A DNA stretch of 64,000 nt from Chromatiaceae bacterium (GCA_019356535.1 CP037918.1:1332315-1396314); one strand, 5' to 3'; positions 3,463 through 28,629 are shown, counted from the first letter of the stretch. Program-made: numbers and translations. The notes: generated by a model not told the origin, from the letters alone.

Positions 3463-4021
3463 TTATTGCACATCACGCATCAGTGGCATGCGGGCCAGCA
3501 CGAAGTCCGCATCCGCCTCCGGTACGCTATACGCTTCGCAGTAGGATGAATACGACCGCACCTTGTCCGCGATCTGGGCCATGACCTCGCTGACGCGTCT
3601 TGGCCCCAGTCCGCACAAACGCCCGAGGTCACGCAGCGCATTCGGTGTCGGCCGATGCCCCGCGCTGCCAAAAATCAATACATGTTCCCGGTTGTCGTTC
3701 ACGTCCGGCAGGATGTCGAAGGCCGGCGTCAATCGCCATCCCCCGTCGCGCCACTGCATGGCAAAGTTCTTCAGGTGGTCATCGGTATTGGCCAGACAGG
3801 CGTTCAGTACGATCTGCCGAAACAGTTGCTCGAGATCCGCCTGTGGCGCCGATGAGACGTTCGCGACCCCCTGGATTACGTCGCAGTAACCGACCTGGTA
3901 GTACCCACGCGCATCCAACAGGGTTTTCAGCGACAGCATGTGCCGACGCCCCCCGGCGGGCGTCACATCGAAACGCTCGAGCAGGAGTGCCTTGCGATCC
4001 GCAGCGCTGACCACGCTTCGT
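3463..4021 (-). pseudogene. hipA: HipA-family kinase toxin, C-terminal half only
   Basis: LLLERFD, NTDDHLKN and LTPAFD motifs; reading frame runs directly into CRISPR repeat 1; no N-terminus or hipB. Confidence 0.85.
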
Positions 4022-6282
4022 GTCTTAATCCCCTTTCTATCGGGTCTGCCTTTCTACAGATGGCGACTATGTAATTGCCAGCAAGACTCGGGTCTTAATC
4101 CCCTTTCTATCGGGTCTGCCTTTCTACTTCCGCTATCCTGAAGTCTCAAGAGAAGAAAGCGTCTTAATCCCCTTTCTATCGGGTCTGCCTTTCTACAGAA
4201 GGATATCAGGAACTGTTCAAACTGATCTGGTCTTAATCCCCTTTCTATCGGGTCTGCCTTTCTACTGCACAAAGCACCGAGCACTGCAAGCACACAATGT
4301 CTTAATCCCCTTTCTGTCGGGTCTGCCTTTCTACGAGGCGAGGCAATGAAAACGTACAGCTTAGAAGTCTTAATCCCCTTTCTATCGGGTCTGCCTTTCT
4401 ACCGAACTGGTTAACCTGTTCTTCAAAATCGGGATGTCTTAATCCCCTTTCTATCGGGTCTGCCTTTCTACGCGGATATGAGCGCGGATCGTCAAAACTT
4501 GTTGCGTCTTAATCCCCTTTCTATCGGGTCTGCCTTTCTACGTGGAACGAAGATGAATTGCTTGCCCTTCGTGGTCTTAATCCCCTTTCTATCGGGTCTG
4601 CCTTTCTACGACGTGTACACGAAGAAAGTCGGCGACAAGACCGTCTTAATCCCCTTTCTATCGGGTCTGCCTTTCTACATCACGACGCCAGCGCCCAGGG
4701 CGCAATCCAATAGTCTTAATCCCCTTTCTATCGGGTCTGCCTTTCTACCCACCACCCGGTGGGCCGCGGGTCGGTCGTCATCGGTCTTAATCCCCTTTCT
4801 ATCGGGTCTGCCTTTCTACATCCAGGAGTTGTCCGACAAGATCCGCTCGCTGCGTCTTAATCCCCTTTCTATCGGGTCTGCCTTTCTACGCTATTGCAGC
4901 GTTCGCTATCACGGATAGCGAAGGTCTTAATCCCCTTTCTATCGGGTCTGCCTTTCTACGAGAGTGCAGTCTTCGATGCGTATCCCACAATGACGTCTTA
5001 ATCCCCTTTCTATCGGGTCTGCCTTTCTACTGAACGCCTATTCGATCTGACTCAGATCGACGGTCTTAATCCCCTTTCTATCGGGTCTGCCTTTCTACCA
5101 GAGTTGAAGAAAAGCTCGATAGAGCTGGTCGTCTTAATCCCCTTTCTATCGGGTCTGCCTTTCTACATGGACGCAGCAATAAAAATGCCTGAATCGTTAC
5201 GTCTTAATCCCCTTTCTATCGGGTCTGCCTTTCTACAACACTGAGAATGAAAGCGCGAAGCGTGCTATGTCTTAATCCCCTTTCTATCGGGTCTGCCTTT
5301 CTACTCCGAGCGTACTGAGCGCAAATTTGAAGATGGTGTCTTAATCCCCTTTCTATCGGGTCTGCCTTTCTACAGCGCAATAAAATGACAGAGCGCGCTC
5401 AGAAATGTCTTAATCCCCTTTCTATCGGGTCTGCCTTTCTACCTAAAATTGGTGATAAAAACTTTACATCAATTATGTCTTAATCCCCTTTCTATCGGGT
5501 CTGCCTTTCTACCTATTAAGATGGCCCGATATGGTGGTATGCATTCGTCTTAATCCCCTTTCTATCGGGTCTGCCTTTCTACTCTGGGCCTATGAAAACC
5601 GCTGGTTCGCCGACGGTCTTAATCCCCTTTCTATCGGGTCTGCCTTTCTACACCTGTGGGTGGACGACGTGCCGCCAGAGATGGCCGTCTTAATCCCCTT
5701 TCTATCGGGTCTGCCTTTCTACAGGTCGAGTGGACAAATGATGGCGTCGAAGCTGTGTCTTAATCCCCTTTCTATCGGGTCTGCCTTTCTACAAAAAGAA
5801 AAAGTAATTAGCTGTTCTTCTATATGGTCTTAATCCCCTTTCTATCGGGTCTGCCTTTCTACAGCTTCGTCGTCTCGCGTTGCACTCTGCGCTATCGTCT
5901 TAATCCCCTTTCTATCGGGTCTGCCTTTCTACTGCAATTCTGAGCAACATCGACGCAAACACCGGTCTTAATCCCCTTTCTATCGGGTCTGCCTTTCTAC
6001 GATTTGAGCGGCGCAATGGAGAACATCGCCCATATGTCTTAATCCCCTTTCTATCGGGTCTGCCTTTCTACTCAGGAGCGCGTATTACAGCGTTTATCGT
6101 CACGGGTCTTAATCCCCTTTCTATCGGGTCTGCCTTTCTACACATCATCACCGAAAACGATAGCGCGAAACGCGCGTCTTAATCCCCTTTCTATCGGGTC
6201 TGCCTTTCTACCCCACGGGATCTCTGTATGGGCATACAACGGGAACGTCTTAATCCCCTTTCTATCGGGTCTGCCTTTCTAC
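4022..6282 (-). CRISPR. CRISPR array 1: 33 repeats, 32 spacers (32-35 nt)
   Basis: 36-bp repeat, minus strand GTAGAAAGGCAGACCCGATAGAAAGGGGATTAAGAC; the ATTAAGAC 3' handle is typical of type III; one variant repeat at 4299; leader at the high-coordinate end. Confidence 0.99.
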
Positions 6283-6380
6283 CGTATGGCCATGTTTTCC
6301 CTTATTATTCATGCTGTTGCATCGGCAGTTAGGAAAACTTTTCGGCATTTCGAAGCTGTCCGGTGTTATCGTCTTCGGCA
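6283..6380 (-). promoter_or_regulatory. Leader of CRISPR array 1
   Basis: AT-richer non-coding stretch between the cas2 stop and the first repeat; shares a ~30-bp motif with leader 2. Confidence 0.75.
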
Positions 6381-6683
6381 TCACTCGCCACCTTCAAGGA
6401 TAGCAGACCATTCCGCTTCTTCGCCCAGGAACACGTCTTCCGGGAATCGCGTTTTACCGATATGAAGGCCGTCTGCCTGGTTCTGGAGCGGGTATATCCT
6501 GATATCGTCTTCATTGGTGATGACGGCGCGCAGATCGGCTACAAGCGCCTCCAGACGGGTTCTGCTGAGTTCTGCCAGGAACACCGAGTACTGCAGGGGT
6601 ATGCCGTAGTTCTTGCACGTCTTGTGGACCCGCACCAGACGACGGGGGTCGGCAATGTCGTAGGAAACCAAGTATCGCTTCAT
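6381..6683 (-). CDS. cas2: CRISPR-associated Cas2 (second copy)
   Basis: YLVSYDIADPRRLVRV...LQYSVF; ATG at 6683 overlaps the upstream stop (ATGA). Confidence 0.93.
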   Translation of the reverse strand: MKRYLVSYDIADPRRLVRVHKTCKNYGIPLQYSVFLAELSRTRLEALVADLRAVITNEDDIRIYPLQNQADGLHIGKTRFPEDVFLGEEAEWSAILEGGE

Positions 6684-7468
6684 GGGCAATCGCGGGTGGC
6701 TGTCCAGAGGTGAAGACGCGCCAGGGCCCGGCGGCCTGTCTCGTCCAGGGTGGGTTCGAGCTGCTGGTAGAACCAGGTCAGATGACGCTGCCGTTGCCGT
6801 TCATCATCGAAGGCCTTGCGGGCCGCGGGATAACGACGCAGCAACCCGGCCCAGTGAAGCAGAATCTTCCACTGCAGGATACCGGCGAGATCGGTGGGCA
6901 GGTCGATAATGCCACCGGTCAGGTGGGGAGTCTGCGCGCCGATGCCCAGGCGCATGAGCCGTTCGGTGGTCCAGGCAAGCGTCCTGGCGCGCAGATGTTC
7001 AATGCTGGCGATCACTGCCTGGCGTTTGAGCTGCCTGCCCACCGTCTCCAGGAGCAGCCGGTGTACCCGGTCGGGATCCGGCAGATGCCCCAGCCAGGGA
7101 TAGTGCCTTGCCAGGGCGAGCAGTTGCTCCCTCTGGTGGTGCGCGCACCAGTCGGCATAGCGCTCGGTGCCGTCGGCGCGGGCTAGAAGCTCCTCCAATT
7201 GCTGTACCAGCGAAGAGTGCTCGCCGCCGGCACCCAGCATGCGCGCCACAATCGTCCCTCGATCGTCGATGAAGATCACCGGGATGCCCTTGCCCAACAG
7301 GCAGAGCAATGCTTCCTGCTCCCAGAGGACCGCGGGGTGGCTGACCACGCGCGAGAGCCGTTCGACCGGATACAGCCGATCGGCCTCGTCTACGCACCGC
7401 ACCAGCAGCGCCGGTCCGTCCAGAAAGACACGGGCACCCTTCCGGCTTTCGAGATAGAGCGGTTTCAT
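6680..7468 (-). CDS. Divergent Cas1-like protein lacking catalytic motifs (262 aa)
   Basis: Cas1-type N-terminal beta domain (LYL...GARVFLDGPALLV...YPVERLSRVV...ALLCLLGKGIPVIFID..G); no EG..A..Y, no N..L..GY, no catalytic His; ATGA overlaps on both sides. Confidence 0.75.
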   Translation of the reverse strand: MKPLYLESRKGARVFLDGPALLVRCVDEADRLYPVERLSRVVSHPAVLWEQEALLCLLGKGIPVIFIDDRGTIVARMLGAGGEHSSLVQQLEELLARADGTERYADWCAHHQREQLLALARHYPWLGHLPDPDRVHRLLLETVGRQLKRQAVIASIEHLRARTLAWTTERLMRLGIGAQTPHLTGGIIDLPTDLAGILQWKILLHWAGLLRRYPAARKAFDDERQRQRHLTWFYQQLEPTLDETGRRALARLHLWTATRDCP

Positions 7469-8430
7469 GGGGTGCTGCTCCCTGTCGGCCCGAAGGTCGC
7501 GAATCGCCTGGCCAGGGTCATGGCGGCCCGGCGCAGGGCCCGCCGCGCCGGCTGTATGCGGCATTCATATGCCTGGTAGAAATGGCGCCGGCCCGCCTTG
7601 GACAACAGGCAGGCCTCGCCGTCCCGGGTGAAGTGCCTGGCGGTGATGAGTTGTTCACGGCACAAGTCCCAACAAAGGCGGTCGACCTGGGGGCGCAGCG
7701 GCTCGATCATGTCGGAGGCGAGCGACTCCCGACCGTACGCCGGTTGGTGATAGAAACCCAGGTAAGGGTCGAGGCCCGCCATCCAGACGGCCTTCACCGC
7801 CTCGCCATGCAGCAGGGTGTAGCCCAGCGACAGCAGCGCGTTGAACGGGTCCCTTGGGGGCCGCCGGTTGCGTCCGGAAAACCCGAGCGATGGGGGAAGT
7901 ATCGCTGCCAGCCCGGCAAAATAGGCCTGTGCCGCACCACCCTCCATCCCTAGCAAGGTCTGGACAGTCGGCTGCGGCTGTCTCGCCAGCCTCAGACGCG
8001 CCTCCCGCACAGACAAGATGGCCTTTCGCAGGGCCAGGCGGGCATCGCCCCGCGCCTCGGCGGCCCGTTCCAGAAACTGTTGCTGGCTGCGAAGCTTGAG
8101 CAACACCAGACGCTTACCCCACCCCGTCCGCCAGGCCAGATCGTCATACGCGCGGGCCTGGCCCAGCCGACGCCGGGCATCGTTGTGCAGAGGCCCGGTG
8201 AAACTACCCTGGAGCCGGTGGTGCCTGCCCGACAGGGTACTCAAGATGACGCCGTTGTCCGCCAGATGGCCCAGCACGCTGGTGTCGAGCGCCACCGTGC
8301 CGCGGATCACGATCCGGTCGAGCAGGTGCAGGGGCAGATTGCTGCGCCGTCCTTCCCGATCACGGATCACGATGCTGGCACCCTCACGCTCGATGGACGC
8401 CACCTGCCGATCCAGATACAAGGTGCTCAT
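7465..8430 (-). CDS. cas1: CRISPR-associated endonuclease Cas1
   Basis: LGMEGGAAQAYF, RPPRDPFNALLSLGY, GFYH and SLASDMIEPLRP are all intact; no RT domain. Confidence 0.97.
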   Translation of the reverse strand: MSTLYLDRQVASIEREGASIVIRDREGRRSNLPLHLLDRIVIRGTVALDTSVLGHLADNGVILSTLSGRHHRLQGSFTGPLHNDARRRLGQARAYDDLAWRTGWGKRLVLLKLRSQQQFLERAAEARGDARLALRKAILSVREARLRLARQPQPTVQTLLGMEGGAAQAYFAGLAAILPPSLGFSGRNRRPPRDPFNALLSLGYTLLHGEAVKAVWMAGLDPYLGFYHQPAYGRESLASDMIEPLRPQVDRLCWDLCREQLITARHFTRDGEACLLSKAGRRHFYQAYECRIQPARRALRRAAMTLARRFATFGPTGSSTP

Positions 8431-8436
8431 CCGCGC

Positions 8437-8721
8437 CTATCCCACGTAGAACCAGTCCGGGTCTGCCGGCGCGACGGCCTTGCCCAGCACGCGCGATTGC
8501 ATGCTCGGGTCGTGACGGATGAGCAGGAAGCGATCTTCTGTCTCATCGAGCAAGGCGCGCATTTCCTTGATAAGCCGCCAGTATTCGGCCGGTGTCAGAT
8601 AGCACTCGAACACCGACTTCTGGCGACCGCACGCATAACCCTTGAGGATCTTCAGGGCCTTGCGCAGGCGACGTGGGTCCGACACGTCATAGGCGGCAAT
8701 GTAGAGTCTGCGTGTGCTCAT
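8437..8721 (-). CDS. cas2: CRISPR-associated Cas2
   Basis: YIAAYDVSDPRRLRK...QKSVFEC; RBS GGGAG. Confidence 0.95.
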   Translation of the reverse strand: MSTRRLYIAAYDVSDPRRLRKALKILKGYACGRQKSVFECYLTPAEYWRLIKEMRALLDETEDRFLLIRHDPSMQSRVLGKAVAPADPDWFYVG

Positions 8722-8818
8722 GATGTCTGCTCCCTTGCGCTATCGGTGAGAGTAGCGCCGCCTGGGCTCCCGGGAGTGAATGGCAAGCTTGCGGAAGCCT
8801 GTCCGCTTGCTTTGGTCC

Positions 8819-9073
8819 TCAGTGAATTCGGCGTGTTGCACTGTCCGGGTCCGACGATTCGTCATCGGGGAAGGCCTCGTTCATGGCGTCGAACATCAGG
8901 TCCGCTGTCCTGAAGCAGGCCGCTACCACGTCTTCCGCGGGAACAGTGGAAAAGGCGGGATTGCGCAGCATTGCCGCCATAGCCCGGTTTGCGACTTCCC
9001 AGATCAGGTCCGATTTTCTCTGACGCATCGGATTCTCTACCTCGGTTCCGGCGACGGGGTGATCGAGGCTCAT
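8819..9073 (-). CDS. Small hypothetical protein upstream of the adaptation operon (~84 aa)
   Basis: GAGG then ATG (MSLDHPVAG...); helical-looking DLIWEVANRAMAAMLRNPAF segment; no family recognised. Confidence 0.5.
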   Translation of the reverse strand: MSLDHPVAGTEVENPMRQRKSDLIWEVANRAMAAMLRNPAFSTVPAEDVVAACFRTADLMFDAMNEAFPDDESSDPDSATRRIH

Positions 9074-9291
9074 CGATGACCGTTCCTCCAGATGCGCAAG
9101 CGACAAGGGCTGGCCATCGACGCCCGCTGCCCATTCTCTGCGTTCGCAATTCGTTCTTGGGAGACGGCAGGCTTGCCGACAACGCCCGTCGCACCAGACT
9201 GTTCTAGGATTCCCATGCGCAACAGGCAATGAAACACGGAGCATCAGCCGTGAACCCGTGCAGCTATTCCAGTGACGGCGATTGGGGCGAC

Positions 9292-9888
9292 ATGCTGGAC
9301 GACCAGGGCCCGGAATTCTGGGAGCATGTGTGCTGGCCCGCCGACGAGCTCATAGAGCATGATCACAATGACGTCTCCCCCGATGATCAGGAAGACCCCT
9401 TCTATGCATACGCCTACGAGGTCGTTTACAAAAAGGATGACAGCACCGAAGAACATGCTCCACCCTTGGCACTGCAGCAGTCTTCCGACGCCAAACAGGA
9501 GCGCCTGGAACAGAACCTGGCCGACTGGCAGCACTGGGCGCAACTCGATCACTTCGCCAGCGAGCCTTCCCCGGTAGATATCGAAAACCATTGTCAGGGA
9601 TCGTCACCTCTGGCCGCTTCGGCAGATCGTCGGGAGCAAATCCTGGCCTGGCTCCAGACATCGGACCTTGCGCGCCCATTTCGATCGCGAAACGGCTTTT
9701 TCATCCGCGGCGGTTCGACCGTCACCCTGCTCAATGGCAGAGAGCTGGACGCCATCCTTTGGCTGTTCTCCGAAGGGATCATCGGCGGCGCCCGTGTCGG
9801 AGGCTACGAAATCGTCTACAACGACGCCAAATCGCCCTGGGGAGAGAGCCTGTCCTTCTTCCCCTGTCGGGTGCCGGCGCCTTTCTGA
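9292..9888 (+). CDS. Hypothetical protein with an acidic N-terminus (start could be 9229)
   Basis: Open frame with a D/E-rich N-terminal half and a globular-looking C-terminal half; no family recognised. Confidence 0.6.
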   Translation: MLDDQGPEFWEHVCWPADELIEHDHNDVSPDDQEDPFYAYAYEVVYKKDDSTEEHAPPLALQQSSDAKQERLEQNLADWQHWAQLDHFASEPSPVDIENHCQGSSPLAASADRREQILAWLQTSDLARPFRSRNGFFIRGGSTVTLLNGRELDAILWLFSEGIIGGARVGGYEIVYNDAKSPWGESLSFFPCRVPAPF

Positions 9889-9939
9889 TGTCGTCCTTGG
9901 ACAAGGCTCCCGCCAGACATAACCGCGGCAGCACCCATG

Positions 9940-10290
9940 GGGTGATAACTCGAACAGGGTTGTTACGATCGCTAGTGCCAATGGCGGCCTGCACGCCATC
10001 GATCCTTCGGCCCTGCTGGACTGGGGTTCCCGGGTTCAACGATATCCTCGTCATCGTCGGCCTGAATGCCACTCCCTGGTCTTCCGCCTTGGCCTTCCCG
10101 GAGGGGATACCCTGAGACGCACCACCGGGCTGGTCCCGACCTGGCCAGTCACTGGTCGGCAAATCCCGGGCATACCCATCGATCATATGCCTGTATCGCC
10201 CCACTGGCACATCATCGACCAGGATGTGGGGCCGGACATCGGCTCCGGCCACGATCCCACCATCGCTCGTCCACCCCTGGAAAGTTTCTA
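9940..10290 (+). pseudogene. Possible degraded PilY1/PilC beta-propeller fragment
   Basis: Fragments across frames (ASANGGLHAID, PSALL, DILVIVGL, W..IDQDVGPDIGSGHDPTIAR) occur in the order of PilY1 motifs GANDGMLHAFD, PSAVL, TVLVGG, LWE..DLG...P.IAR; weak. Confidence 0.25.
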
Positions 10291-10416
10291 GTTCATTAAC
10301 TTCCTTGTATCAGATCTCGCCTGGGAACCTCCGAACAAGCTCCGATCCCCATTGCATGGAGGAGAAGAACGTGGATTTTTTTCAGGTATGTAATGACCCC
10401 CTAGTTTTTGCACACC

Positions 10417-11260
10417 CTACGCAGCAATCTGCGCAGGCACCTGGTAGCCGAGTGCCTGATGGGGCCGCTCGGTGTTGTAGTGGCGTATCCAACGCCCGAT
10501 CACTTCTCGTGCATGGCTGATCGACTCAAAGTGGTGATGCCATACACATTCTTCTTTCATGGTGCGGATAAACCGCTCGATCATGCCGTTCTGCTCCGGG
10601 CTATATGGCGTAATGAACTCCCTGGGTCAATCCATAGCCCCTGACCGTAGCCGTATAGCGATGGGAGGTGAAGACCAGGCCGTTGTCGCTGCGTAGCTTC
10701 AACGGCCCGGATACGCGTCCCAGATGACCAAACCGGTGGATCAGCGCCTCTTCCAGTGCCGCTTCCGCTGTACAGGCATTGCCATGGGCCGCCAAACGCC
10801 ATCCCAGCAGTTCCCTGCTGGCACAATCGATGACCAGTGCAATATGGCACCAGCGATCACGGCCACACCAGATCCGCGCCAGGTCCGTGGCCCAACGTTG
10901 ATCCGGCGCTTGGGCAACCGATGGCAACGCACTCACCCGGGGACGATGCCCTTTGGGTCGCTTGCGTACCTGCCACCCCTTGAGTCGGCAGATTCGCTGT
11001 ACCACCTTGCGGTTCCAGCCCAGTAGAAACGCGATGCGACGGTAACCGTAGGTCGGAAAGCGCTCAATGATGGCTTTCACCTTCTCGGCTTTCGTCTCGT
11101 CAACCACAGGCTGCCTCACCGCAGGCCGGTAGTAGTAGCTCCTGCGACTCACCCCCAGCCATCGACAGAGCTTGGCAACGGAAACCTCATGGCCTTCTGC
11201 TTTGAGCTCCGCCTGCACCGACTTGACTAGCTTTCTTCCTCGTCGAGCAGGCGCTGCCAC
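10417..11260 (-). pseudogene. IS3 transposase OrfB (DDE), frameshifted
   Basis: WATD, LRSDNG; an extra base in the C run at 10620-10622 shifts the final EFITPYSPEQNGMIERF...YNTERPHQALG segment out of frame. Confidence 0.85.
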
Positions 11261-11538
11261 TTTTTTATCGCTTTGAGCTCCAGTTCCTTCTCGCCCAAGG
11301 CCGCATATGCCTCCGCCAGCTTGCGCTCGTACTGTTCCCGAAGGTCTCGCGGGCGGGTTCGGAAGTTGTTCTCCATGCCCTGAATGCCTTCTTCCACCCA
11401 GCGCTCTACATCACCGGGGGTAAGGTCATGTTGCCGAGAAACCTCTGCGACCGTTGTCTTGCCTTTGAGAATATCCAGTACGACCTGCGTCTTGCGCTTG
11501 GCTGTCCACCGCTTGATCTCGTTTTCTTGCTTGTCCAC
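11227..11538 (-). CDS. IS3 transposase OrfA
   Basis: RWTAKRKTQVVLDILKGKTTVAEVSRQHDL HTH; overlaps orfB at an A-rich shift site. Confidence 0.88.
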   Translation of the reverse strand: MDKQENEIKRWTAKRKTQVVLDILKGKTTVAEVSRQHDLTPGDVERWVEEGIQGMENNFRTRPRDLREQYERKLAEAYAALGEKELELKAIKKWQRLLDEEES

Positions 11539-11640
11539 GTTGCCCTCCTTTCTGCACTATAGCTTGTGCAGATTTGGAGGGGGTCACTTCAGGTATTCCC
11601 TTACTACTTGCAAAATGCGACAGCCTTGACATCGTCCGCC

Positions 11641-13122
11641 ACCTTAACCCCCTTTATATCGGGTCTCAGTTACTACGGCGAGAAGGAGTACACGCTGCGC
11701 ATCGAATACAGTCTTAATCCCCTTTATATCGGGTCTCAGTTACTACACTTCAGCTAGAGGAGGAAGCTCATGGAGCGAGTCTTAATCCCCTTTATATCGG
11801 GTCTCAGTTACTACTTTGACTTTCTCGAACTGGCAGAACTTCACGGGTCTTAATCCCCTTTATATCGGGTCTCAGTTACTACCGGAAATTGGACGCTGGG
11901 ACAGCGCGTTTCCTGGTCTTAATCCCCTTTATATCGGGTCTCAGTTACTACGATCCGCATTTCCAAAGTAAGCAAGCTTGACGGGTCTTAATCCCCTTTA
12001 TATCGGGTCTCAGTTACTACAGCAATTGCACTCGCGCTCGACAGAATCGAAGTCTTAATCCCCTTTATATCGGGTCTCAGTTACTACACCGCAGTGGGCG
12101 AAGACCCTCGCACCGAGCAGTCTTAATCCCCTTTATATCGGGTCTCAGTTACTACCTCGACGGCAACCAGATCCCCCTCAGCGTCTTGTCTTAATCCCCT
12201 TTATATCGGGTCTCAGTTACTACCTCAGATCCGAAAGAACCTCACTGGGATGCACGTCTTAATCCCCTTTATATCGGGTCTCAGTTACTACAGAGAAGCG
12301 TGCGGAGTCTTTCGCGCAAGCACGCGTCTTAATCCCCTTTATATCGGGTCTCAGTTACTACGCCATCGACACCGCCGTTGCGCTGTGGGGATACGTCTTA
12401 ATCCCCTTTATATCGGGTCTCAGTTACTACGGATTAACTATAAAAACAACGTCGCGTCCGGAGAGTCTTAATCCCCTTTATATCGGGTCTCAGTTACTAC
12501 TCTCGCGGTTCGTCTTCCGCGGCTTCGTCGAGGGTCTTAATCCCCTTTATATCGGGTCTCAGTTACTACGACGTGCTACGACGAAGAACTCATTGAAGCG
12601 TGTCTTAATCCCCTTTATATCGGGTCTCAGTTACTACCGGTTGGCAATCGGGCTGATCACGTTCATCAGTCTTAATCCCCTTTATATCGGGTCTCAGTTA
12701 CTACCGGAGTGCGCGCGAAAATCGCGCACGTCAACGTCTTAATCCCCTTTATATCGGGTCTCAGTTACTACGTCGTCGATAACGGGTATGAGCACACGCT
12801 GCGCGTCTTAATCCCCTTTATATCGGGTCTCAGTTACTACACCAGAAGATTTTTGCAGGCGATGAAATCATCAAGCGTCTTAATCCCCTTTATATCGGGT
12901 CTCAGTTACTACACAAAAGGACAAGGAAAAGATGGCGAAGATGCGCGTCTTAATCCCCTTTATATCGGGTCTCAGTTACTACACCAGCCTCCTGATAAAT
13001 ATGTACTGAAAAGGGGATGTCTTAATCCCCTTTATATCGGGTCTCAGTTACTACAAAACAACAAAATGACAGAACGTGCTCAGAAGGTCTTAATCCCCTT
13101 TATATCGGGTCTCAGTTACTAC
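11641..13122 (-). CRISPR. CRISPR array 2: 22 repeats, 21 spacers (31-36 nt)
   Basis: 36-bp repeat, minus strand GTAGTAACTGAGACCCGATATAAAGGGGATTAAGAC; the degenerate trailer repeat at 11641 fixes the orientation. Confidence 0.99.
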
Positions 13123-13267
13123 ACAGCCCCCTCAAAATTCAGCTTACATTTCAATGTGTTACGAAGGGGGTCAGAAAAAATTCCGGCAATCCGGAAGCTG
13201 TCTTGCTCAAGAGCAGAACGGAACCCCGACATCCTTGCTTCCAGAATAGTCGTCCGTTTCGACTGCA
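13123..13267 (-). promoter_or_regulatory. Leader of CRISPR array 2
   Basis: Non-coding and AT-richer; shares a motif with leader 1 at nearly the same distance from the first repeat. Confidence 0.75.
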
Positions 13268-15343
13268 TCATCGGGACATCGGCTCTTCGGCCTGTTCCAG
13301 CACCCACCCATAGACCTCCCTGTCAACGGCCTTCAGCAACCGCTCACGCTCCTCCGTTGGCAGAAAGGCATGTGCAAACCCCTGCTTCACGATCGCCAGG
13401 GCCTCCCACAGGGAGAGTTTCGGCCACAATACCGCGGCCTTGAAAAGCTCGCCGGTGGCATCGGTGCGACTGATGCCGGGGTTGTCGGTGCACAGGGCCA
13501 AGGGCACCCCCTCTCTCCAGTAGTGCTGCAGCGGATAGGGTCTGTCGCCACCGTAACCGACCACCTCGTCGTTGGAGCTGGGGCACAGTTCGATACAGAT
13601 ACCGCGGTCGCGAAAGCGCTGCAGCAGCTTGTCATCGTCGCCCAAGGTCAGGCCATGGCCGATGCGGTCGGCGTGCAGCCGGTAGGCGGCTTCCCAGATC
13701 TTGTCAGAGGGGGTGCCTTCGCCGGCATGGATGGTGATGGGCAGGCAGGCGCGAAAGGCCGGTTCGAAGTGTCGGGCAATCTCCAGCGGTGCATGCGTGC
13801 CGTCCTGCATTTCGTCGCCCGCCAGGTCCAGGCCGACGACGAAGCCGTCCAGTGCCTCCCGGGCATCGACGGCCAGTTGCACCACCGCCTCCAGGCGATC
13901 GGCTTGCCTGCGGTCGGCAATGACGATGAAGCGCAACGTGATGTCGGAATATTCTCGCGCAATGGCCTGCAGTTGCCGCAGAAAGCCGATCTGTGCCTCG
14001 CGGTCCCGGCGATATTTCTGCGGGCTGCCGCGCAGCTCAAGGTAACGCAAACCTTCGTGGCGGGCCGCCTGCAACAGCGCGTGCATGTAAGCCTGCAGCG
14101 CGGCAGGATGGCCGAGAACCGCCGAGCCGGTCAGTTCCCCGGGGCGTTCGTAGGCGGCAAAGCCCCGCCCACTCTTTTGCAGGCCATGACGGGGGCTGGT
14201 GACATCGAAGAGGTTGTACTGCAACTGTTCGTCGTCGGCCTCCACCAGCAAGGCGGCGGCATTGTGTGCACGCTCGCCTGCCTTCAACTGCCGGGGCCAC
14301 TCCCAGTCCCATTCCCGGTTGGCCAACAGGGGGCGGACCCGATCCAGGGCCCGTGCCCGTTCCCTTTCGGTGAGGCTGTCCCAGATGGCGCGGCCGACCC
14401 GGCGTTGCGCGGCGATGTCGAGGCAGCCCCCGATATGACGATGCAGGTCGGCCTTGGGCAGACGCCGCAGCGCTTCGGGGTCCACCTCGGCCAGCCGTGT
14501 GTGGCGCAGGCGCTCGATCAGCGCCGGGGGCAACCGGTAGAGCGAACGCCAGTTTTCATGGTGCTCGCCTCCAGCCAGCAGTTGCAGGTAGTTACCGAGC
14601 AGCCGCGAGCCTTCGCGTTCCCTGCGTTCGATCTCGCGCGGCAGGCTCGGCTCGGCGGCCCGCCAGGTGAAGGCACCCCCTGCCGCCGGCAGGGGATAGC
14701 TGGCCGCAGTCAGCCTCGGCTGGCCCGACTCCTCGATATCGAGCAGCTCGCTGCGCTTTCCCGCACCAACCACCAGAGGAACCAGCCCCTTGCAGTCGTC
14801 CACGCTCAGGGGCCGGGTGAAGGTGTCCGGTGCCGCCTGCTTCATGGGCTCGCTCATCTGGTTGAACGGCGGGGCGATCACATGCAGCAGGGCGGCGCAC
14901 CCGATCAACATGCCGGCGCGTTGCAGGTCGGCCGACATGGTCTTGCGTCCACCGGCCAGCGAGAGGTAGAGGCGCCCTTCCCTGCCGGTGCGTTCCGAGG
15001 CCAGCAGCACGGCACGGTAGATCAGTTCGCGCACCTGGTCACCCGCGACCTGGTCAGCGACATCGGTCACCTCGGCGGTGCGCCATACCCGCAGCGGCAG
15101 ATCGGGCGCGATCAGATCACGCCAGCGTTCGAGCTTTTTCAGCCCTTCATCGAGCTGAGTGTCGTCGGTGGTGCAGACCCACAGTTCGTCCACTGGGTGC
15201 AGCTCGTGTTTCCGGCGCAGGCTCTCGATGGCCGCATGGTCGGGGTGATCGCAATAGATGGGGCAGCGCACGGGATCGAGGAGCCCGAAGGCCTCGGGGA
15301 TCACCGCCCAGGTCTGGCCGAGGGTGCAGAGGAGGATGTTCAT
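13268..15343 (-). CDS. cad1: CARF-adenosine deaminase fusion (Cad1/CAAD-type cOA-activated effector)
   Basis: N-terminal CARF (ILLCTLGQT, SLAGGRKTMS); ADA motifs DLHRH, TIHAGE, RIGHG, ELCPSSN, TDNP. Confidence 0.92.
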   Translation of the reverse strand: MNILLCTLGQTWAVIPEAFGLLDPVRCPIYCDHPDHAAIESLRRKHELHPVDELWVCTTDDTQLDEGLKKLERWRDLIAPDLPLRVWRTAEVTDVADQVAGDQVRELIYRAVLLASERTGREGRLYLSLAGGRKTMSADLQRAGMLIGCAALLHVIAPPFNQMSEPMKQAAPDTFTRPLSVDDCKGLVPLVVGAGKRSELLDIEESGQPRLTAASYPLPAAGGAFTWRAAEPSLPREIERREREGSRLLGNYLQLLAGGEHHENWRSLYRLPPALIERLRHTRLAEVDPEALRRLPKADLHRHIGGCLDIAAQRRVGRAIWDSLTERERARALDRVRPLLANREWDWEWPRQLKAGERAHNAAALLVEADDEQLQYNLFDVTSPRHGLQKSGRGFAAYERPGELTGSAVLGHPAALQAYMHALLQAARHEGLRYLELRGSPQKYRRDREAQIGFLRQLQAIAREYSDITLRFIVIADRRQADRLEAVVQLAVDAREALDGFVVGLDLAGDEMQDGTHAPLEIARHFEPAFRACLPITIHAGEGTPSDKIWEAAYRLHADRIGHGLTLGDDDKLLQRFRDRGICIELCPSSNDEVVGYGGDRPYPLQHYWREGVPLALCTDNPGISRTDATGELFKAAVLWPKLSLWEALAIVKQGFAHAFLPTEERERLLKAVDREVYGWVLEQAEEPMSR

Positions 15344-16554
15344 TGCCGGGACTCTGGCGGCAAGAGTTGTTCGAACAAGGTCTCGAGGAGATCGCGCATC
15401 GCCTCCGGGCTGGACAGCGCCCGCTGGACCTCGTCGCCCTTGGGCTGGCTCCCGTGGGCCACGGCGTTGCGCAGGCGCCGCAGGCTGTCATAGGCCCGGT
15501 AGCGCGGGGTGCGGGGTTGTATCGCCCTTTCCCTTGTTTCGAAGCGTTCCCGGACACTTTCACGGTGTGCCATGTTGTCCGGGTCGAGGGTCTTGTCCTC
15601 TTCGCGTTGCAGGCGGGTGGTGAAGGCCTCCCAGCCGGTCAGGGCCGCTTCGAGAAAGCGCTCACGACGCAGATATTCCAGAGCCAGTTCACGCTGGCGC
15701 AGGTAGTAGTTGTCCTGGCGGGCCCAGGCGAGACGCCGGCTCAGTTCTTCGCGGAACAGCGCCAGCGCCGGGTCGTCCGTGCCTTGTTCGAGGCGTTCGA
15801 GCACCTGTCTCAGGAGCGATCTGGCCTGACCGATGCGGTTGACCGTTTCGAGGAAGGCTGCCCGCCGCAACAGTTCGCCCGTGTCGCCCCCGATCAAGGG
15901 ACCGAAGACCCCGTAATCGCCGGTCTGGCCATACACGGACAGCGCCTCGAGCCAGTCAGCGATATCGAGCAGGCCGGCCAGATCGTGCACGGACGCCCGA
16001 CCGGTATCCGGATCGTAGGCGCCGTACCAGATGTGCGCGATCTTCGCGCTCCGCACCTTGCGCAGGTGCAGGGCCGAGAGCAGTGTCAGCATGGGCAGGT
16101 GGCGAAAGCCGTGGGTAATGTCCAGATCCACGCGGTCGCCTTGCCCTACTTCTTCGGCCAGATCCCGCAGCAGACCCACCTGCTCCCGGGAGCTGTTGCA
16201 GTACGAGATCAGACGCAGGCGCACCTCGCAGCCCAGACGGTCCGCCAGCACCGGGGCGAGGCGGTCGAGCCTCTCCTGGGTGACGGCTTGCCGCTCGGCC
16301 TCACCCACCAGCGCCAGGCGATCTTCCTCGGCCGCATCACCCAGCGCGATATCGCCTTCGAACAGGTGATCCCACATGCTGCCCGGCGTGCCCAGCACCA
16401 CCAGCCGGTCTGGCCGGAGCCGCCGCTGCAGCGCCCAGCCGAAGAAGGCCAGTGGCTCACAATCGGCGCCGTCACCGAAATCGTAGCTGGTGGTGCGGTA
16501 GCCCTGTTCCCCGCGAGGCGTGCGGCCGAGAAAGGTGATGAGGATGTGGGGCAT
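15340..16554 (-). CDS. csx1: Csx1/Csm6-like CARF-HEPN ribonuclease (TM1812 family)
   Basis: ITFLG, Y..TSY.F, DITHGFRHLP; HEPN RNAVAH. Confidence 0.92.
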   Translation of the reverse strand: MPHILITFLGRTPRGEQGYRTTSYDFGDGADCEPLAFFGWALQRRLRPDRLVVLGTPGSMWDHLFEGDIALGDAAEEDRLALVGEAERQAVTQERLDRLAPVLADRLGCEVRLRLISYCNSSREQVGLLRDLAEEVGQGDRVDLDITHGFRHLPMLTLLSALHLRKVRSAKIAHIWYGAYDPDTGRASVHDLAGLLDIADWLEALSVYGQTGDYGVFGPLIGGDTGELLRRAAFLETVNRIGQARSLLRQVLERLEQGTDDPALALFREELSRRLAWARQDNYYLRQRELALEYLRRERFLEAALTGWEAFTTRLQREEDKTLDPDNMAHRESVRERFETRERAIQPRTPRYRAYDSLRRLRNAVAHGSQPKGDEVQRALSSPEAMRDLLETLFEQLLPPESRQ

Positions 16555-16564
16555 GTGGACCTCG

Positions 16565-17845
16565 TTATTCGGCTTCCAGTTTCGCGAGTTCGTCGGCAAT
16601 GCCCTGCTTCTTCTGCTTTTTGCTCCAGGGCAGCGCCTCCAGGGTCTGGCGGATCAATCGGGCGGCACTCCGACGATGTACGGGGTCTTCCCAGGCCTGT
16701 GCGGCCTTCAGCAGCTCCAGGCGCTTTTGCGCGGTCTGACAACCGGCCGACAGCAGCCCCTTGCGTTGTTCCTCTTCGCAGGTCTTGCGCAGCGCCTCCA
16801 GCGCCTGTTCCTCGGGTGACAGTTGCGCGAATGCCTGTTGCCTGGCCTGCTCCTCCCGCTCCCGGGCCGCGGCCTCGTCAAACCGCATGGCGCCGTAGCC
16901 CACCGCGGTCTTGGCGCCGAAGCCCAGCCAGTCGAAGGCGTGTTCGAAGGCCTGTTGCAGCAGGCGCCGCCAACGGTCGTTTTCGGCCAGTTCCGGTGCA
17001 ATGCGGCGCAGGAAAGGCAGATCACACACCACGTGAAAGGTGAAGCGCGAGCCCGGAGGCACGGTGAGGAAATACACGGGAATCGGCTGGCCGGATTCGT
17101 GGGGCGATTCCCCTTGCATGTAGTAATGGCTCTGGTGGCCTGTCATCACCTCCACTATCAGCTTGTCGCCTTCGATGCCCGGGATCACGTCCCAGAAGCT
17201 CAGGGCGCCCCGGCGGGCGTCGTTGCTGTCTTCCTTGCCGAACAGGGCGTCGATGGCCGTTGCGGTCCAATCCGATTCCATGTCCCATTCAGCGGCAGCA
17301 ACGCCGGCCAGTTCCCGTGCCGCCTGGCGCAGCACCCCCTTGACCCCGCTGCCCGGCAAGTAGGGCAAGCCATAGGGCCAGAGAAAGGCAAAGCCGTTCT
17401 CCAACGGGTGTTCATTGCCCAGGCCCGTGGTGAAGGGTGCCACCGCCTCGCCATCGACCACCATCACCTCGTCGCCGGTGCAGGCGGTCGATGCCAGCGC
17501 CTGCTGGCGAGCGACCAAGGCCTGCATGCGTACCTTGTCGTCACCACTCAAGCCGCTGACCCGTTTCCAAGCCGATTGGGCACCCTGGTCGTTCTTGTGC
17601 CATAGCGCCGGGAATCGTCCACGCGCCTGTTTCGCGTGCGAAATGGCGGCGTCCATCCCCTGCTGTTCCAGGATCTGTCCAAGTTCCCGTCCTTGCGGAC
17701 TCTTGGCGCCAGCCATCTTCCGGATCTGTTTTTCCTGGTCTGCTCGCTCGGTCCAGATCGGCAGATACATGGAGAAGCGCATCCCCGGCGAGGCTTCCGA
17801 CAGGTCTTGCTTGCCGATGTATTCGGGTATCGCTGCGATGGGCAT
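16565..17845 (-). CDS. cmr6: Type III-B RAMP Cmr6
   Basis: TTGLGNEHPLENG, PYLPGSGVKG, GFGAKTAVGYG. Confidence 0.95.
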   Translation of the reverse strand: MPIAAIPEYIGKQDLSEASPGMRFSMYLPIWTERADQEKQIRKMAGAKSPQGRELGQILEQQGMDAAISHAKQARGRFPALWHKNDQGAQSAWKRVSGLSGDDKVRMQALVARQQALASTACTGDEVMVVDGEAVAPFTTGLGNEHPLENGFAFLWPYGLPYLPGSGVKGVLRQAARELAGVAAAEWDMESDWTATAIDALFGKEDSNDARRGALSFWDVIPGIEGDKLIVEVMTGHQSHYYMQGESPHESGQPIPVYFLTVPPGSRFTFHVVCDLPFLRRIAPELAENDRWRRLLQQAFEHAFDWLGFGAKTAVGYGAMRFDEAAAREREEQARQQAFAQLSPEEQALEALRKTCEEEQRKGLLSAGCQTAQKRLELLKAAQAWEDPVHRRSAARLIRQTLEALPWSKKQKKQGIADELAKLEAE

Positions 17846-17846
17846 C

Positions 17847-20285
<2,439 letters not shown>

Positions 20286-20289
<4 letters not shown>

Positions 20290-23198
20290 GCGGCATCCTC
20301 CCTGGTGTTGCGGTGGGCGGCCCCGGATACCCGGGTTTCGCGGGCCAGAAACTCGGCCACGGAGAGGAAGTTTTCGATCCAATCGAGGCGTTCATCCCGC
20401 CTGGCATGAATGATCGCCTGCTCGACCAGCGATCGGGCGAGCCCAGGCAGCTCATAATAGTCGCGGGTCGTCTTCTTATTGCACTGGCGTGCCAACTGAT
20501 AGGCCAGCAATTCGGCTACCATGGCACCGTCTCCCTCGGGCTCGGGCAGGTCACGCAACCAGAGCGCGCTGTTGTAGACGGCGCGACGCGATACGGACGG
20601 CTCAGCAAGGAAATCGCGTAGCCGCAGCAGCAGCCGCAACGGTTCGCCCCAGCGGGCAGTCAGGTGCAGCGCTCCGCCCGCCCGCTTGACGATGGTGATG
20701 GAGAAGGCATCGCGACCGCCCTCCTCCTTGGCGCGTTTCTCCGCCGCACGCAGCTCGCGCAACACTGCGCCCAATGGGGCCTGGTGGTGGGCGATTACCG
20801 CACCGCAGCTGGCCGTCGCCTGCTCGCCCATCAGCCGTAACAGCCGGCCTCGGTGCCGCACGAAGCCGTTGCCTTGCCGTTCGAAGCCGAGCTCGGCCTC
20901 CAGGCCAACCGCTTCGGGTGCTATCCCCGAATAGGCGGCGCGCGCCGAAGCCATCGCCGGCAACAGATCGATCACTGGCAGCATGGCCATCAGGTCGTCG
21001 CCGCCGGCATACAGAACGCGTCCATGGTGACGACGCTCGATCACTTCGGGGGCAAGTGTCAGCGCAAAATGGTTGAGCGCCTCGGAGATGGCCATGTGGC
21101 GTGACGGGCTGGGGGCGCGTTTCTCCCTGGCATAGGCGACAAAGTTCGGATCGTCCTCGAAGACGCGCAACGCGGCGCGGATCTGTGGATGGAAGCTGGT
21201 CTCGTGGGCCAAGGCCACCTCTCGGTCGGCCGACAACCAAGCTCCCATGCGGTCGCCGTCCATCAGCAGCAGGCCGTAGTAGGCTTCCGGTTTATGGCCA
21301 AGCCACGCTTCCAGTAATCGGGCTGCCTGGCGCTGTTGTGTTTCGTCCTCCGCTTCGCGCATCTCTTCCAGCCACCCTGGCAGGCGACGCAGCAACGCGC
21401 CGTCGGGATGATCGCGCAGTGCCGCCGAGAGCTTGCGCGGCAGTGCGACCCGCTCGTCGTGGCTGGCGGCGATCTTCTCGCGCAGTGCTCGGGAGAACTC
21501 ATGCCCGGCATTCAGCGCATTGGCGATGGACCCGGCCAGCGCCATGGTGTGAGTGCTGACCACGAAACGGTTGAAACCCTGATCCACCAGATCACCCAGC
21601 TCACGCACGAACAGCGTCGGCCAGAGGCGCTTGAGCGTGTTGAGTGCACCGAGGTGTTCGCCCTTTCTGGCCCAAGCGGGCTTATTGTCGGCGACCTTGG
21701 TCCACAAGGTCTCTTCGTGCTCGCCTTCCCTGAAACCCTTGTCTTGACGACTCTTCCTCTTGCCCTGCGGCAGGTCAAGCTGATCACAATCGGTGGTGAG
21801 CCACTCGGCCTCGCCTGACAGCGAATCGCGCCAGCCTTTCTGTTGCAGCTGGGCGAAGGGTCGAGCCGACTTGGTCGCAGCCACCAGGCGCTCCAGCAAC
21901 TCGTGCAGGGCCGGGTAGAGGCTGCCGGGATTGGGCCGCCAGAACCATCCCTGCTCCAGCTCGATGCCGCCGGATAGCAACCGCCAGGCCTCGCTGCCTA
22001 GATAGCCGGGCGGGCTGGACGCGAAGAAGGGCCGCATCGCCTCGGCCAGCCGAGTGTCGCTGGCCGCTACCCTGCCATCTTTGTCGGTTCCCACCAGCGA
22101 CCAAGGCACCGCAGCCCAGTGCACTTCTGGGAAGCCGGCGAGCTGCTCGCGGATCTGCCGATAGCCCGGCAGCTTGGGGTCGTCACCGATGCCGGCTGCC
22201 TCCAGCAGCAGACGGAAGGCCTCGTCGGCCCGCTCCCGCGCCCAGTCGCGAACCCGTTGGGTGATCGTCTCGGCAATCTCGCGCGCCTGGCCCGCCGGTA
22301 CGATGGCAGTGAACCGGTTGGGCAACGCGGCGCCGAACAGCGGATTGGCATCGGACTTGGACCGGGTCCAGTCACATCCCTCGAACAGTTCCGGGCGCAG
22401 GCCCATGGTCTCGCGTAACCACAGATCGATCTGGGGCACGCCACGCAGGCGCGGAAACAGGATCGCCTCGGGGCCGAGTCGTTCGCAGACCACCCGCATT
22501 GCCTCCCAGCTCATGCGCGAGAGCAGATGTGAACCGGCCCAGAGGTCGGAGGTGGTGCGAGCGCTGGCGATGAACTCCTGTACGGGGCCGAGGGAGACGG
22601 CCAGTAACGCCGGGCCACCCTCGCCACTGACAAAACAACCCGCCAGCGCCACAGTCAAATCGAGATGGTCGTGGATACTGTGATCAGGTACCCGAGTATC
22701 GGCCGGCAGTTGCGCCCAGAGGCTCTTGATCTGCTCGGCCTCTACCTCAGGGCCAAAGCGCCAGAAGGCAAGCGCGGTCTTTTGCAGGTCGTCCGGGTGT
22801 ATCAAGCCACGCAGGTGATCCAGTGCCAGCGCCTTGGCCTGTTCCGGTGTAATGTCGCTCAGCCGGCCGATATCGAAGGCTTCACCGGTGAGAGGATGGA
22901 CGATCACCGGACTTTCATGGAAGCGAACCTGCTGCCAGCGCGGATAGCCATGCTCACCGTCACGGTTCGGAAAGGCAGCGCGATCGGCAGCGGAGGCCCA
23001 GTGATCGGCCTGTTTCACCGCGTGGGCCACCATGGGCGGCAAGTCGCTCAGGCCCAGGTCTTGTCTCAACGTGGCCGAAGTACCTCCCTCGTGCCCCTCG
23101 GCGGAACGCATCAGGATCAGCGCCTTCTCGATAGGATCGTGCAGGCGAGCGGCGAGCTTAGTTTGCCAGAGCTTATTATTGTCCCTTTGATCGCTCAT
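20286..23198 (-). CDS. cas10: Cas10/Cmr2 large subunit with intact palm domain
   Basis: LHDP, DTRVPDHSI, DLWAGSHLLS, MDGDRMG, YAGGDDL. Confidence 0.97.
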
Positions 23199-24256
23199 GA
23201 TTGACTCCTCTTCACTCGCTTTGCCTCATCAAGATAGGCATGCACCTGCGACCAGACCTCTTCGATGGCACCGAGGTCGGGCTGGAACTGCCGCGGCGGC
23301 CTGCAGGGGAGGTGGAAGATCCGACCGTACAGCCTGCCATCTTCCCCCTGCACCACCTTGAAACGGAGGCTGTTGGGGAGGCGGGCATTACGATCCCACC
23401 GTTTGGTCCCGTGGTTTGTTACCGGATAGGCCAACCAATGTCGGTCTTCCACCTGGCGATGCGGCGGCTTTTCCTTGGGAAAGCGGAAGCGAGTGCGCAG
23501 GTCGATCTTGATCTCCGCCAGCCGCCTCATGAGCTGCTGCCAGTCGTCGAAGGGATCGGTCTGCCAGATCAGGACGCCCTTTCCATCCTTGCCGATGGCA
23601 TGGGGCCAGTCACGATCCAGACATTCGCGCCAATCACGCAGCGGATACTTACCGTCTGACAGGTCGCCGGCGAGGGAGAGCGAGCCCCAACCATTGCGCG
23701 AGCGTCCACCCAGCGCGCCAAAGGCGTCGATCAAGAACAGCGCCCTGTCGAGCAACTCGGCGTCGACAGCAGGGAAGGCCAGGCGCAGGGTGGCCTGTTC
23801 GCCTGCCTGGATGGCGGCGTTCGTCTTCAGGGCCGTCCGCCTTGACTGCCTGTCGTAAGTCAGCGGACCAAACCCGAGATAGAGGTCAGCCCCAACCGAC
23901 CGGCCTACCTCCGGATGGCTCACTTTCCCGATCTCATTCCATTCCGAACGCCTCAGCTTGCCGGTGCTCCATTTATCCAGCCGCAACCGCACGCGACTGC
24001 GATTGCCGCTGCCGTCGGCGGCAGTGCCGAACAGCGCCCCCTCCTGCTCACGCAGGCTCCGGTAGTCGTTTGAAAAACCATTGGCTTCCGCCCAGGCCAC
24101 CCGCCACCACTCGCGCAGCAGGTGCTTGAAAGGTGGCGCGCGCCACTGGCCGTCCTGCTCGGCGTTGCCGAGAAAGGCAGGTGTAACGAAGCGGATCGTG
24201 AACTGCCGGGTTTCCATCCGGCCTTGAAGCGATTTGGTCATGGCTTGGGCCGTCAT
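23195..24256 (-). CDS. cmr1: Type III-B RAMP Cmr1
   Basis: FVTPAFLG, LREWWR, LFG, ALGGRSRNGWGSL. Confidence 0.94.
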   Translation of the reverse strand: MTAQAMTKSLQGRMETRQFTIRFVTPAFLGNAEQDGQWRAPPFKHLLREWWRVAWAEANGFSNDYRSLREQEGALFGTAADGSGNRSRVRLRLDKWSTGKLRRSEWNEIGKVSHPEVGRSVGADLYLGFGPLTYDRQSRRTALKTNAAIQAGEQATLRLAFPAVDAELLDRALFLIDAFGALGGRSRNGWGSLSLAGDLSDGKYPLRDWRECLDRDWPHAIGKDGKGVLIWQTDPFDDWQQLMRRLAEIKIDLRTRFRFPKEKPPHRQVEDRHWLAYPVTNHGTKRWDRNARLPNSLRFKVVQGEDGRLYGRIFHLPCRPPRQFQPDLGAIEEVWSQVHAYLDEAKRVKRSQS

Positions 24257-25437: not shown

Positions 25438-25550
25438 CGGATCGCTTACCTTCCCTCTCCGTCGAAAACGGTGCGGGGGGCGTCCATGCGCTTGCCCTGG
25501 CCCCTTCCCGGACCGCCCCGCTGCGGAACAGTGTGCCCGGCGACCTCCAT

Positions 25551-28410: not shown

Positions 28411-28629
28411 CTGGCGTCCCCGTGTAACTTTTTTGGAAGAACCCTGGCTTTCCAGACCCCTCTGAGAGGGGGCACAGACCCCTCAGTGAGGGATCAGCTA
28501 CCGCCTGGCGTTCCCCGTGTAACTTTTTTGGAAGAACCCTGGCTTTCCAGACCCCTCTGAGAGGGGTCACAGACCCCTCAGTGAGGGGTCAGCTACCGCC
28601 TAGCGCCGCCCGTGTAACTTTTTTGGAAG
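28411..28629. repeat. Tandem 94-95 bp repeats (2 full, 1 partial), each full unit with two GACCCCTC..GAGGG palindromes
   Basis: Units start at 28411, 28505 and 28600; shared GTGTAACTTTTTTGGAAG. Confidence 0.92.

Follow-up and report, generated by a model that had tools for sequence, protein, structure and literature searches.

The stretch of DNA analysed here, referred to below as the window, comprises 64,000 nucleotides of the genome of a Chromatiaceae bacterium (GCA_019356535.1, CP037918.1:1332315-1396314). It carries two CRISPR arrays, and two of the spacers, one in each array, appear from their pattern of mismatches to have been acquired independently from two diverged alleles of one coding site, about 22% different and mostly silently so. 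An earlier reading, made from the sequence alone, had drawn attention to these two spacers, here called the index pair (pair 1). The arrays, their leaders and the spacers that form the two allelic pairs of the window are as follows, with coordinates counted from its first nucleotide.

4022-6282, minus strand: CRISPR array 1, with 33 repeats (GTCTTAATCCCCTTTCTATCGGGTCTGCCTTTCTAC on the plus strand) and 32 spacers
6283-6380, minus strand: leader of array 1, with the motif GTTAGGAAAA..GGCA..GAAGCTGTC
11641-13122, minus strand: CRISPR array 2, with 22 repeats (GTCTTAATCCCCTTTATATCGGGTCTCAGTTACTAC) and 21 spacers
13123-13240, minus strand: leader of array 2, with a motif in common with the leader of array 1
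5374-5406, minus strand: spacer A1_s20, 33 nt, in 13th place counted from the array 1 leader; older of the two index spacers (allele X)
13055-13086, minus strand: spacer A2_s21, 32 nt, leader-proximal in array 2; the newer member of the index pair (allele Y)
5237-5268, minus strand: spacer A1_s18, older of the two spacers in the second allelic pair (pair 2), with the frame N-T-E-N-E-S-A-K-R-A
6142-6175, minus strand: spacer A1_s31, second-newest of array 1; the newer member of the second allelic pair

The two arrays are co-oriented, and a recount gave the same 53 spacers (32 + 21) as had been reported before. On the plus strand the first 26 nt of the repeat are common to both arrays and the other end is distinct, giving two repeat variants. 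The leftmost repeat of array 2 is degenerate and is the old end of that array. The positioned motif found in the two leaders is shared by the right flanks of arrays 1 and 2 and of one metagenomic sister array. Read on the minus strand, the repeat has ATTAAGAC at its end, a sequence that resembles the usual 8-nt tag of CRISPR RNA (crRNA). Because of the degenerate left repeat, the shared right-flank motif and this repeat end, the leaders are placed on the right and transcription on the minus strand. The same far-left repeat and right-flank motif agree with the earlier assignment of A2_s21 as the newest spacer of array 2. A search of the whole genome revealed no other CRISPR array in the rest of its 2.75 Mb.

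Aligned without gaps, A1_s20 and A2_s21 were identical at 25 of 32 positions with an offset of 0, the figures that the sequence-only reading had given. When all 53 spacers were compared with one another on both strands, each pair being scored as matches minus mismatches, the index pair scored 18, the best of all 1378 spacer pairs; in 100 composition-preserving shuffles the maximum score averaged 8.7 and was never above 12. The mismatches lie at spacer positions 2, 3, 4, 8, 20, 23 and 32, and both spacers translate, in the same frame, as N-K-M-T-E-R-A-Q-K. The earlier count of four synonymous third-position mismatches, with three more in the first 4 nt, caught the wobble pattern but not its full extent: position 2 is also a wobble position, so that five of the seven mismatches (2, 8, 20, 23 and 32) fall at third codon positions, while those at 3 and 4 lie within one codon (CGC vs AAC). 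The register in which the two spacers were said to agree holds at one end only; the left, plus-strand ends coincide, but the leader-proximal ends, which adjoin the crRNA 5' tag, differ by 1 nt because the spacers are 33 and 32 nt long. A1_s20 also contains a 10-nt palindrome, GAGCGCGCTC.

The index pair is not the only overlap among the spacers of the window. A1_s18 and A1_s31 are identical at 22 of 29 positions with an offset of -5 (A1_s31 starts 5 nt further left), and six of their seven mismatches fall in one codon phase. A third pair, A2_s01 and A2_s17 (18/24 identical, offset -9), is borderline, with mismatches that follow no wobble pattern. Of the two allelic pairs, the older spacers (A1_s18 and A1_s20) stand two places apart within array 1; the newer ones (A1_s31 and A2_s21) are at or beside the two leaders. 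No spacer was common to the window and any other locus compared.

Between the arrays lies an adaptation module with an unusual composition.

6381-8721, minus strand: adaptation module, gene order cas2-cas1*-cas1-cas2
6381-6689, minus strand: cas2 of the module
6680-7564, minus strand: cas1*, a degenerate cas1 paralogue with weak similarity to the N-terminus of Cas1 only
7465-8430, minus strand: cas1 of the module
8437-8721, minus strand: the second cas2 of the module

Of 400 genomes sampled from the class, 21 had a homologue of Cas1*, as did 26 of 88 genomes in a single family. The 26 arrays recovered from flanking sequences all had repeats with the ATTAAGAC tag; about a third of the 40 flanks retrieved lacked an array. 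The juxtaposition of cas1* and a normal cas1 is a conserved module (the window, L052, L060 and L086-L105), and the repeats of nearby arrays carry the tag ...GGGATTAAGAC.

Some 25 sister loci with the same cas1* module yielded more than 14 diverged overlapping pairs, at offsets from -17 to +16. Locus L060 has an allelic pair, 29/32 identical at offset 0, whose three mismatches are each silent; the two arrays of L052 together contain eight or more overlapping pairs; and L061 and L059 have one overlapping pair each. Sixteen loci of one family, with 540 spacers, gave 12 non-duplicate overlapping pairs on the same strand, as compared with three borderline pairs on opposite strands. The overlapping re-sampling first noted in the window thus recurs in other cas1/cas1* loci, namely L060, L052, L061, L059 and the sixteen-locus set. 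In L052, which belongs to genome G499, five spacers from the two arrays (3780_06, 3780_11, 3780_13, 6015_23 and 6015_27) tile about 90 nt that include a GCCGACAAG tandem repeat, an extreme local hot site.

Mismatches follow codon phase in both window pairs and across the family: in 14 diverged pairs of this CRISPR family, 47 of 73 mismatches fell in the best codon phase, as compared with 38.3 under the null (P=0.0006). For this reason the index spacers are best described as independent acquisitions from two alleles and not as a drifted duplicate, which upholds the earlier proposal that a related variant of an invader was re-sampled at the site of an older spacer.

For one sister pair the target itself could be found. 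The L060 pair matches contig UViG_3300014205_000611 of IMG/VR, which has a third allele and represents a tailed phage no shorter than 27.7 kb. Within it, a 219-amino-acid open reading frame (ORF) without assigned function carries the site on its sense strand; the ORF belongs to a unit with a near-consensus promoter and an intrinsic terminator that adjoins the terminase and portal genes and is transcribed away from both. A third L060 spacer begins 21 nt downstream of the site of the pair, and the remaining L060 spacers have no match elsewhere on the 27.7-kb contig. Three of 32 spacers therefore fall within 85 nt of the contig, for which the chance probability is about 1e-4. Just past the terminator, at the end of this contig (L082, 7400-7521), are two 59-nt direct repeats, which could be iterons or a genome terminus.

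The sequence-only reading saw in the exact register of the index pair a sign of possible target-guided (primed) acquisition. For two spacers that overlap detectably, as these do, offset 0 has a chance of about 1/18. Among the first set of loci, two of nine robust pairs were at offset 0 (P=0.035), one of the two being the index pair itself, which had been chosen for its register. This apparent excess was gone in an independent set of ten diverged pairs, whose offsets were 6, -1, -13, -2, 3, 5, -13, 5, -17 and -3. With the index pair left out, one of 14 diverged pairs was at offset 0, as against about 0.65 expected. Exact register is not a property of this CRISPR family, and its occurrence in the index pair is probably a coincidence at chance level; with the tag ends 1 nt apart as well, the hint did not survive. 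A motif resembling a protospacer-adjacent motif (PAM), a C at position -1, was present for four of four L052 pairs but failed in L061, L059 and L060_07/16, and no consistent flanking motif emerged from the overlapping spacers.

To the right of array 2 are the effector and signalling genes of a type III-B system.

13268-26495, minus strand: type III-B effector and signalling genes
13268-15343, minus strand: CARF-adenosine deaminase, 691 aa, with a CARF-like N-terminus (weak Csm6-family match) and a C-terminal adenosine deaminase domain
15340-16599, minus strand: Csx1/TM1812-like gene
16565-17935, minus strand: cmr6 (7.9e-31, exceeds the curated cut-off)
17932-18357, minus strand: small ORF without family match; its position suggests cmr5
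18239-19300, minus strand: cmr4 (2.9e-62, exceeds the curated cut-off)
19168-20382, minus strand: cmr3 (1e-27 but 97.2 bits, slightly below the 100.4-bit cut-off)
20286-23198, minus strand: cas10/cmr2 (TIGR02577, E=1e-62; Pfam Cmr2_N and Cas10-Cmr2_palm2)
23195-24256, minus strand: RAMP protein
24253-25659, minus strand: csm6
25551-26495, minus strand: cas6, weak match

With Cmr genes at the locus, no other array and no match to cas3_core above the cut-off anywhere in the genome, both arrays serve the type III-B (Cmr) system alone, and this is the sole CRISPR system of the genome. The translation of Cas10 has an N-terminal HD motif at residues 20-21, and GGDD is present. The CARF-adenosine deaminase gene stands beside array 2, upstream of the cmr genes, and its 691-aa product is likely to be a deaminase effector activated by cyclic oligoadenylate.

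Three further features lie at or outside the ends of the arrays. An ORF at 3463-4014 (minus strand), whose only match is to the C-terminal domain of HipA-type kinases, abuts the leader-distal end of array 1 and is possibly a toxin gene that has been truncated. An IS3-family insertion sequence (10394-11588, minus strand) separates the adaptation module from the degenerate old end of array 2, with a frameshifted transposase, inverted ends that could be read directly, and TTCAGGTAT near both ends. A 95-nt tandem repeat, in 2.3 copies that are 94% identical and with short palindromes, occupies 28411-28629.

The spacers of the window have a strand preference. Forty-one of 53 fit the codon usage of the host better on the plus strand, and 40 of 53 are purine-rich there (p=8e-5); family-wide, 215 spacers are purine-rich on the sense-like strand and 86 are pyrimidine-rich. 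Since spacers are sense-like on the plus strand and crRNA is made from the minus strand, most crRNAs would be antisense to invader mRNA, as a type III system needs; support for this within the window is statistical, and the L060 protospacer, on the sense strand of an ORF, is a direct case. The G+C content of the window's spacers ranges from 21 to 77%.

The content of the spacers was also compared with what is known of type III uptake, which has been reported near early or promoter-proximal regions and at hairpin DNA, with a strand bias that arises from selection (PMC7515739, PMC8860593, PMC13575424). Among 319 spacers from the window and L001-L064, a ribosome-binding site with a start codon was present in 42 in the sense orientation and 12 in the antisense (p=5e-5), a family-wide enrichment that fits the reported uptake near gene starts; in the window alone the enrichment was not significant (4 vs 0, where shuffles give 2.8). 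Hairpin stems of at least 6 bp numbered 13 in 134 spacers, as compared with 5.2 expected from dinucleotide shuffles. Against random 33-mers of the host, only stems of at least 8 stood out (2/53, with 0.25 expected, P=0.026), and the overall enrichment is weak. A1_s13 (4890-4923) and A1_s15 (5031-5062) each have a perfect 9-bp hairpin stem, and such stems fit the reported preference of type III systems for hairpin DNA.

No protospacer for these spacers was found in the host genome, either at the DNA level or at the peptide level with up to two mismatches. Spacers of L052 and L060 had no match by BLAST against the phage collection, and those of L052 had no target in 60 relatives of G499. Among the candidates rejected, a 22/23 pattern match in genome G013 is antisense inside a chromosomal gene and was attributed to chance, and the partial matches that A1_s24 and A1_s10 gave in family genomes are at chance level, with 7-8 mismatches when the whole spacer is aligned.

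We think it fairly likely that the index pair reflects independent acquisitions from a narrow region that is hot for uptake or favoured by selection, and that it is a record of repeated infection and not the product of a new mechanism of guided memory. The two memories would date from different times and derive from a pair of diverged relatives of one invader gene, the two arrays both feeding one type III-B (Cmr) effector and being served by one cas2-cas1*-cas1-cas2 module; transcription on the minus strand would yield crRNAs antisense to the invader mRNA. Sampling of the invader would be uneven, with uptake, survival of cells that carry useful spacers, or both, focused on at most a few hundred nt of a unit that is transcribed and is probably expressed early or strongly. 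Related invaders met on separate occasions would then be sampled at overlapping sites, and the shared left end would be a coincidence inside the hot region, perhaps aided by nucleotide-level preferences in the trimming of prespacers. The positions of the older members close together in array 1 and of the newer ones at the leaders fit two infection episodes, as we infer them. If the 53 spacers are treated as one pool, two to three overlapping pairs imply an effective target pool of 9-13 kb at most; under a two-episode model the region would be only a few hundred nt. The alternatives to guidance that the sequence-only reading had offered, a hotspot of acquisition and strong selection for the site, gain from the recurrence of overlaps in sister cas1/cas1* loci and from the clustering of the three L060 spacers.

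Several observations weigh against such focusing, or at least against its extension to the window. Overlapping pairs were absent from L053, L054, L055, L064 and the 59-spacer L001/L002 set. No target was found in IMG/VR for pair 1 (two versions), pair 2, A1_s19, A2_s20 or A1_s32 by scans with wobble-degenerate or exact patterns; pair 1 had no match in one metagenome scan; BLAST of all 53 spacers against phage and plasmid collections gave no protospacer; and 300 genomes of the family gave only chance-level partial matches to spacers of the window. For the window's own spacers a hot region similar to that of L060 is accordingly inferred and not seen. Were all 53 spacers drawn from a single 40-kb invader family, two overlapping pairs would arise by chance with P of about 0.14; focusing in the window depends on there having been several invaders, which is suggested only by the spread of G+C content. 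The case for focusing in the window itself is moderate, leaning as it does on that spread and on the sister loci. Sequence data alone do not distinguish a bias in uptake from the effect of selection.

The L001 and L002 records, which are JALVDN01 contigs from a metagenome-assembled genome labelled Flavobacteriales, consist almost entirely of array, with 14 and 47 repeats that have the repeat core of the window; the array is also present in metagenome record L025. Their bin assignment looks doubtful, the repeat family being otherwise found in Gammaproteobacteria-like records.

Three other accounts of the index pair were considered. One is that a spacer was copied between the arrays, or descended in both from a common ancestral spacer, and then drifted inside the host genome. 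Array-internal duplication is real in this family, since L091, L093, L094 and L098 contain exact duplicate spacers or blocks (some of them adjacent; in L091 the two-spacer blocks s01-02 and s12-13 are the same, as are s07-08 and s09-10), and spacer duplication has been described for type III-A (PMC13575424, citing PMC8860593). These true duplicates are, however, all 100% identical, whereas the index pair differs by 22%, with five of seven mismatches at wobble positions, which contradicts array-internal duplication as its origin. The flanking repeats are near-identical within each array, with a single substitution across the 33 of array 1 in addition to the degenerate terminal repeat of array 2; codon-phased, silent mismatches are not what drift in a non-coding array would yield; and the two spacers are unequal in length. 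We regard drift of a copy as very improbable. A second account dispenses with any hotspot: if the invader's replicon were very small, as in a satellite, a small plasmid or a tiny phage with single-stranded DNA, random sampling would give two to three overlapping pairs by itself. The pool of 9-13 kb implied by the number of pairs speaks for this account, and the lack of a target in phage collections is compatible with a small element that has not been sampled. The range of spacer G+C content argues instead for several invaders, and spacers cluster within 85 nt even on the L060 target, a tailed phage no shorter than 27.7 kb, so that a tiny target seems to us unlikely to explain the pairs.

The third account is interference-driven or 'primed' re-acquisition, in which the old crRNA, mismatches notwithstanding, binds the variant transcript and activates Cas10 at the transcription bubble, and local DNA damage feeds Cas1-Cas2, so that the new spacer would come from exactly where the old one matches. 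Whether type III systems show priming is still an open question (PMC9048733). The crRNA of the old spacer would mismatch allele Y only at positions 2, 11 and 14 in its first 25 nt, the rest of the mismatches being at the 3' end, and type III systems tolerate such mismatches (PMC9048733). Cas10 retains GGDD as well as the HD motif near its N-terminus; of the locus's four newest spacers, two (A1_s31 and A2_s21) fall on sites sampled before; and L052 has overlapping spacers of identical sequence, acquired close together in the array, at offsets of -2, +2, +11 and -12. The order of older and newer members in both window pairs is as priming would require, although independent infections would give the same order. 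Against this, exact register is not in excess when the index pair is left out, offsets range as widely as described above, and several sister arrays have no pairs at all. In Streptococcus thermophilus a type III hotspot forms without interference genes (PMC13575424), so that an explanation independent of crRNA already exists. No result here requires priming, and we hold it to be a doubtful explanation of the pair. It is slightly less probable still that type III-B systems with cas1/cas1* may update their memories in place, crRNA-directed Cas10 damage at the site of a diverged transcript being followed by capture of a fresh, perfectly matching spacer.

Focal sampling, the reading that we favour, has precedents in the adaptation hotspots of type III systems in S. 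thermophilus (III-A; Zhang et al. 2021, PMC8860593; Noble-Molnar et al. 2026, PMC13575424) and Thermus thermophilus (Artamonova et al. 2020, PMC7515739). As in those systems, the CRISPR family studied here targets RNA, has a conventional Cas1-Cas2 and lacks a reverse transcriptase; the focus would be small, transcribed and promoter-proximal, there is a bias towards pairing of crRNA with mRNA, no clear PAM is evident, and natural arrays sample the same regions repeatedly. It differs from them in that the host is a Proteobacterium, the subtype is III-B (Cmr), and Cas1 is accompanied by a degenerate paralogue and by two Cas2 genes; moreover, the evidence comes from natural arrays only, in contrast to their uptake assays. 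In addition, the hot site of sister locus L060 is at the 3' end of a short unit, by the terminator, and not just after the promoter. In PAM-dependent systems the PAM fixes the register, and exact register is expected, whereas in the cas1* family register is usually not conserved. A likeness to type I primed adaptation and to type II-A acquisition at Cas9 cut sites (PMC9048733) is that a partly matching older spacer precedes the new one in the same region; unlike in those systems, there is no Cas3 or Cas9 here. In type I priming the new spacers are scattered across the surrounding kilobases, while here they fall onto the site, and nothing here shows that acquisition depended on the old crRNA. 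The best explanation, in our view, is focal sampling, selection or both, which has already been described for type III systems and is here found in a III-B family whose adaptation module is unusual.

On this explanation, the index pair is an ordinary record of the arms race between host and invader. Proteobacterial type III-B arrays with the cas2-cas1*-cas1-cas2 module would show focal, sense-biased sampling like that demonstrated, in recent experiments, for the III-A systems of Firmicutes and for Thermus, and the many natural allelic and overlapping pairs of this family constitute a data set on which the contributions of uptake and selection, and type III priming itself, may be assessed.

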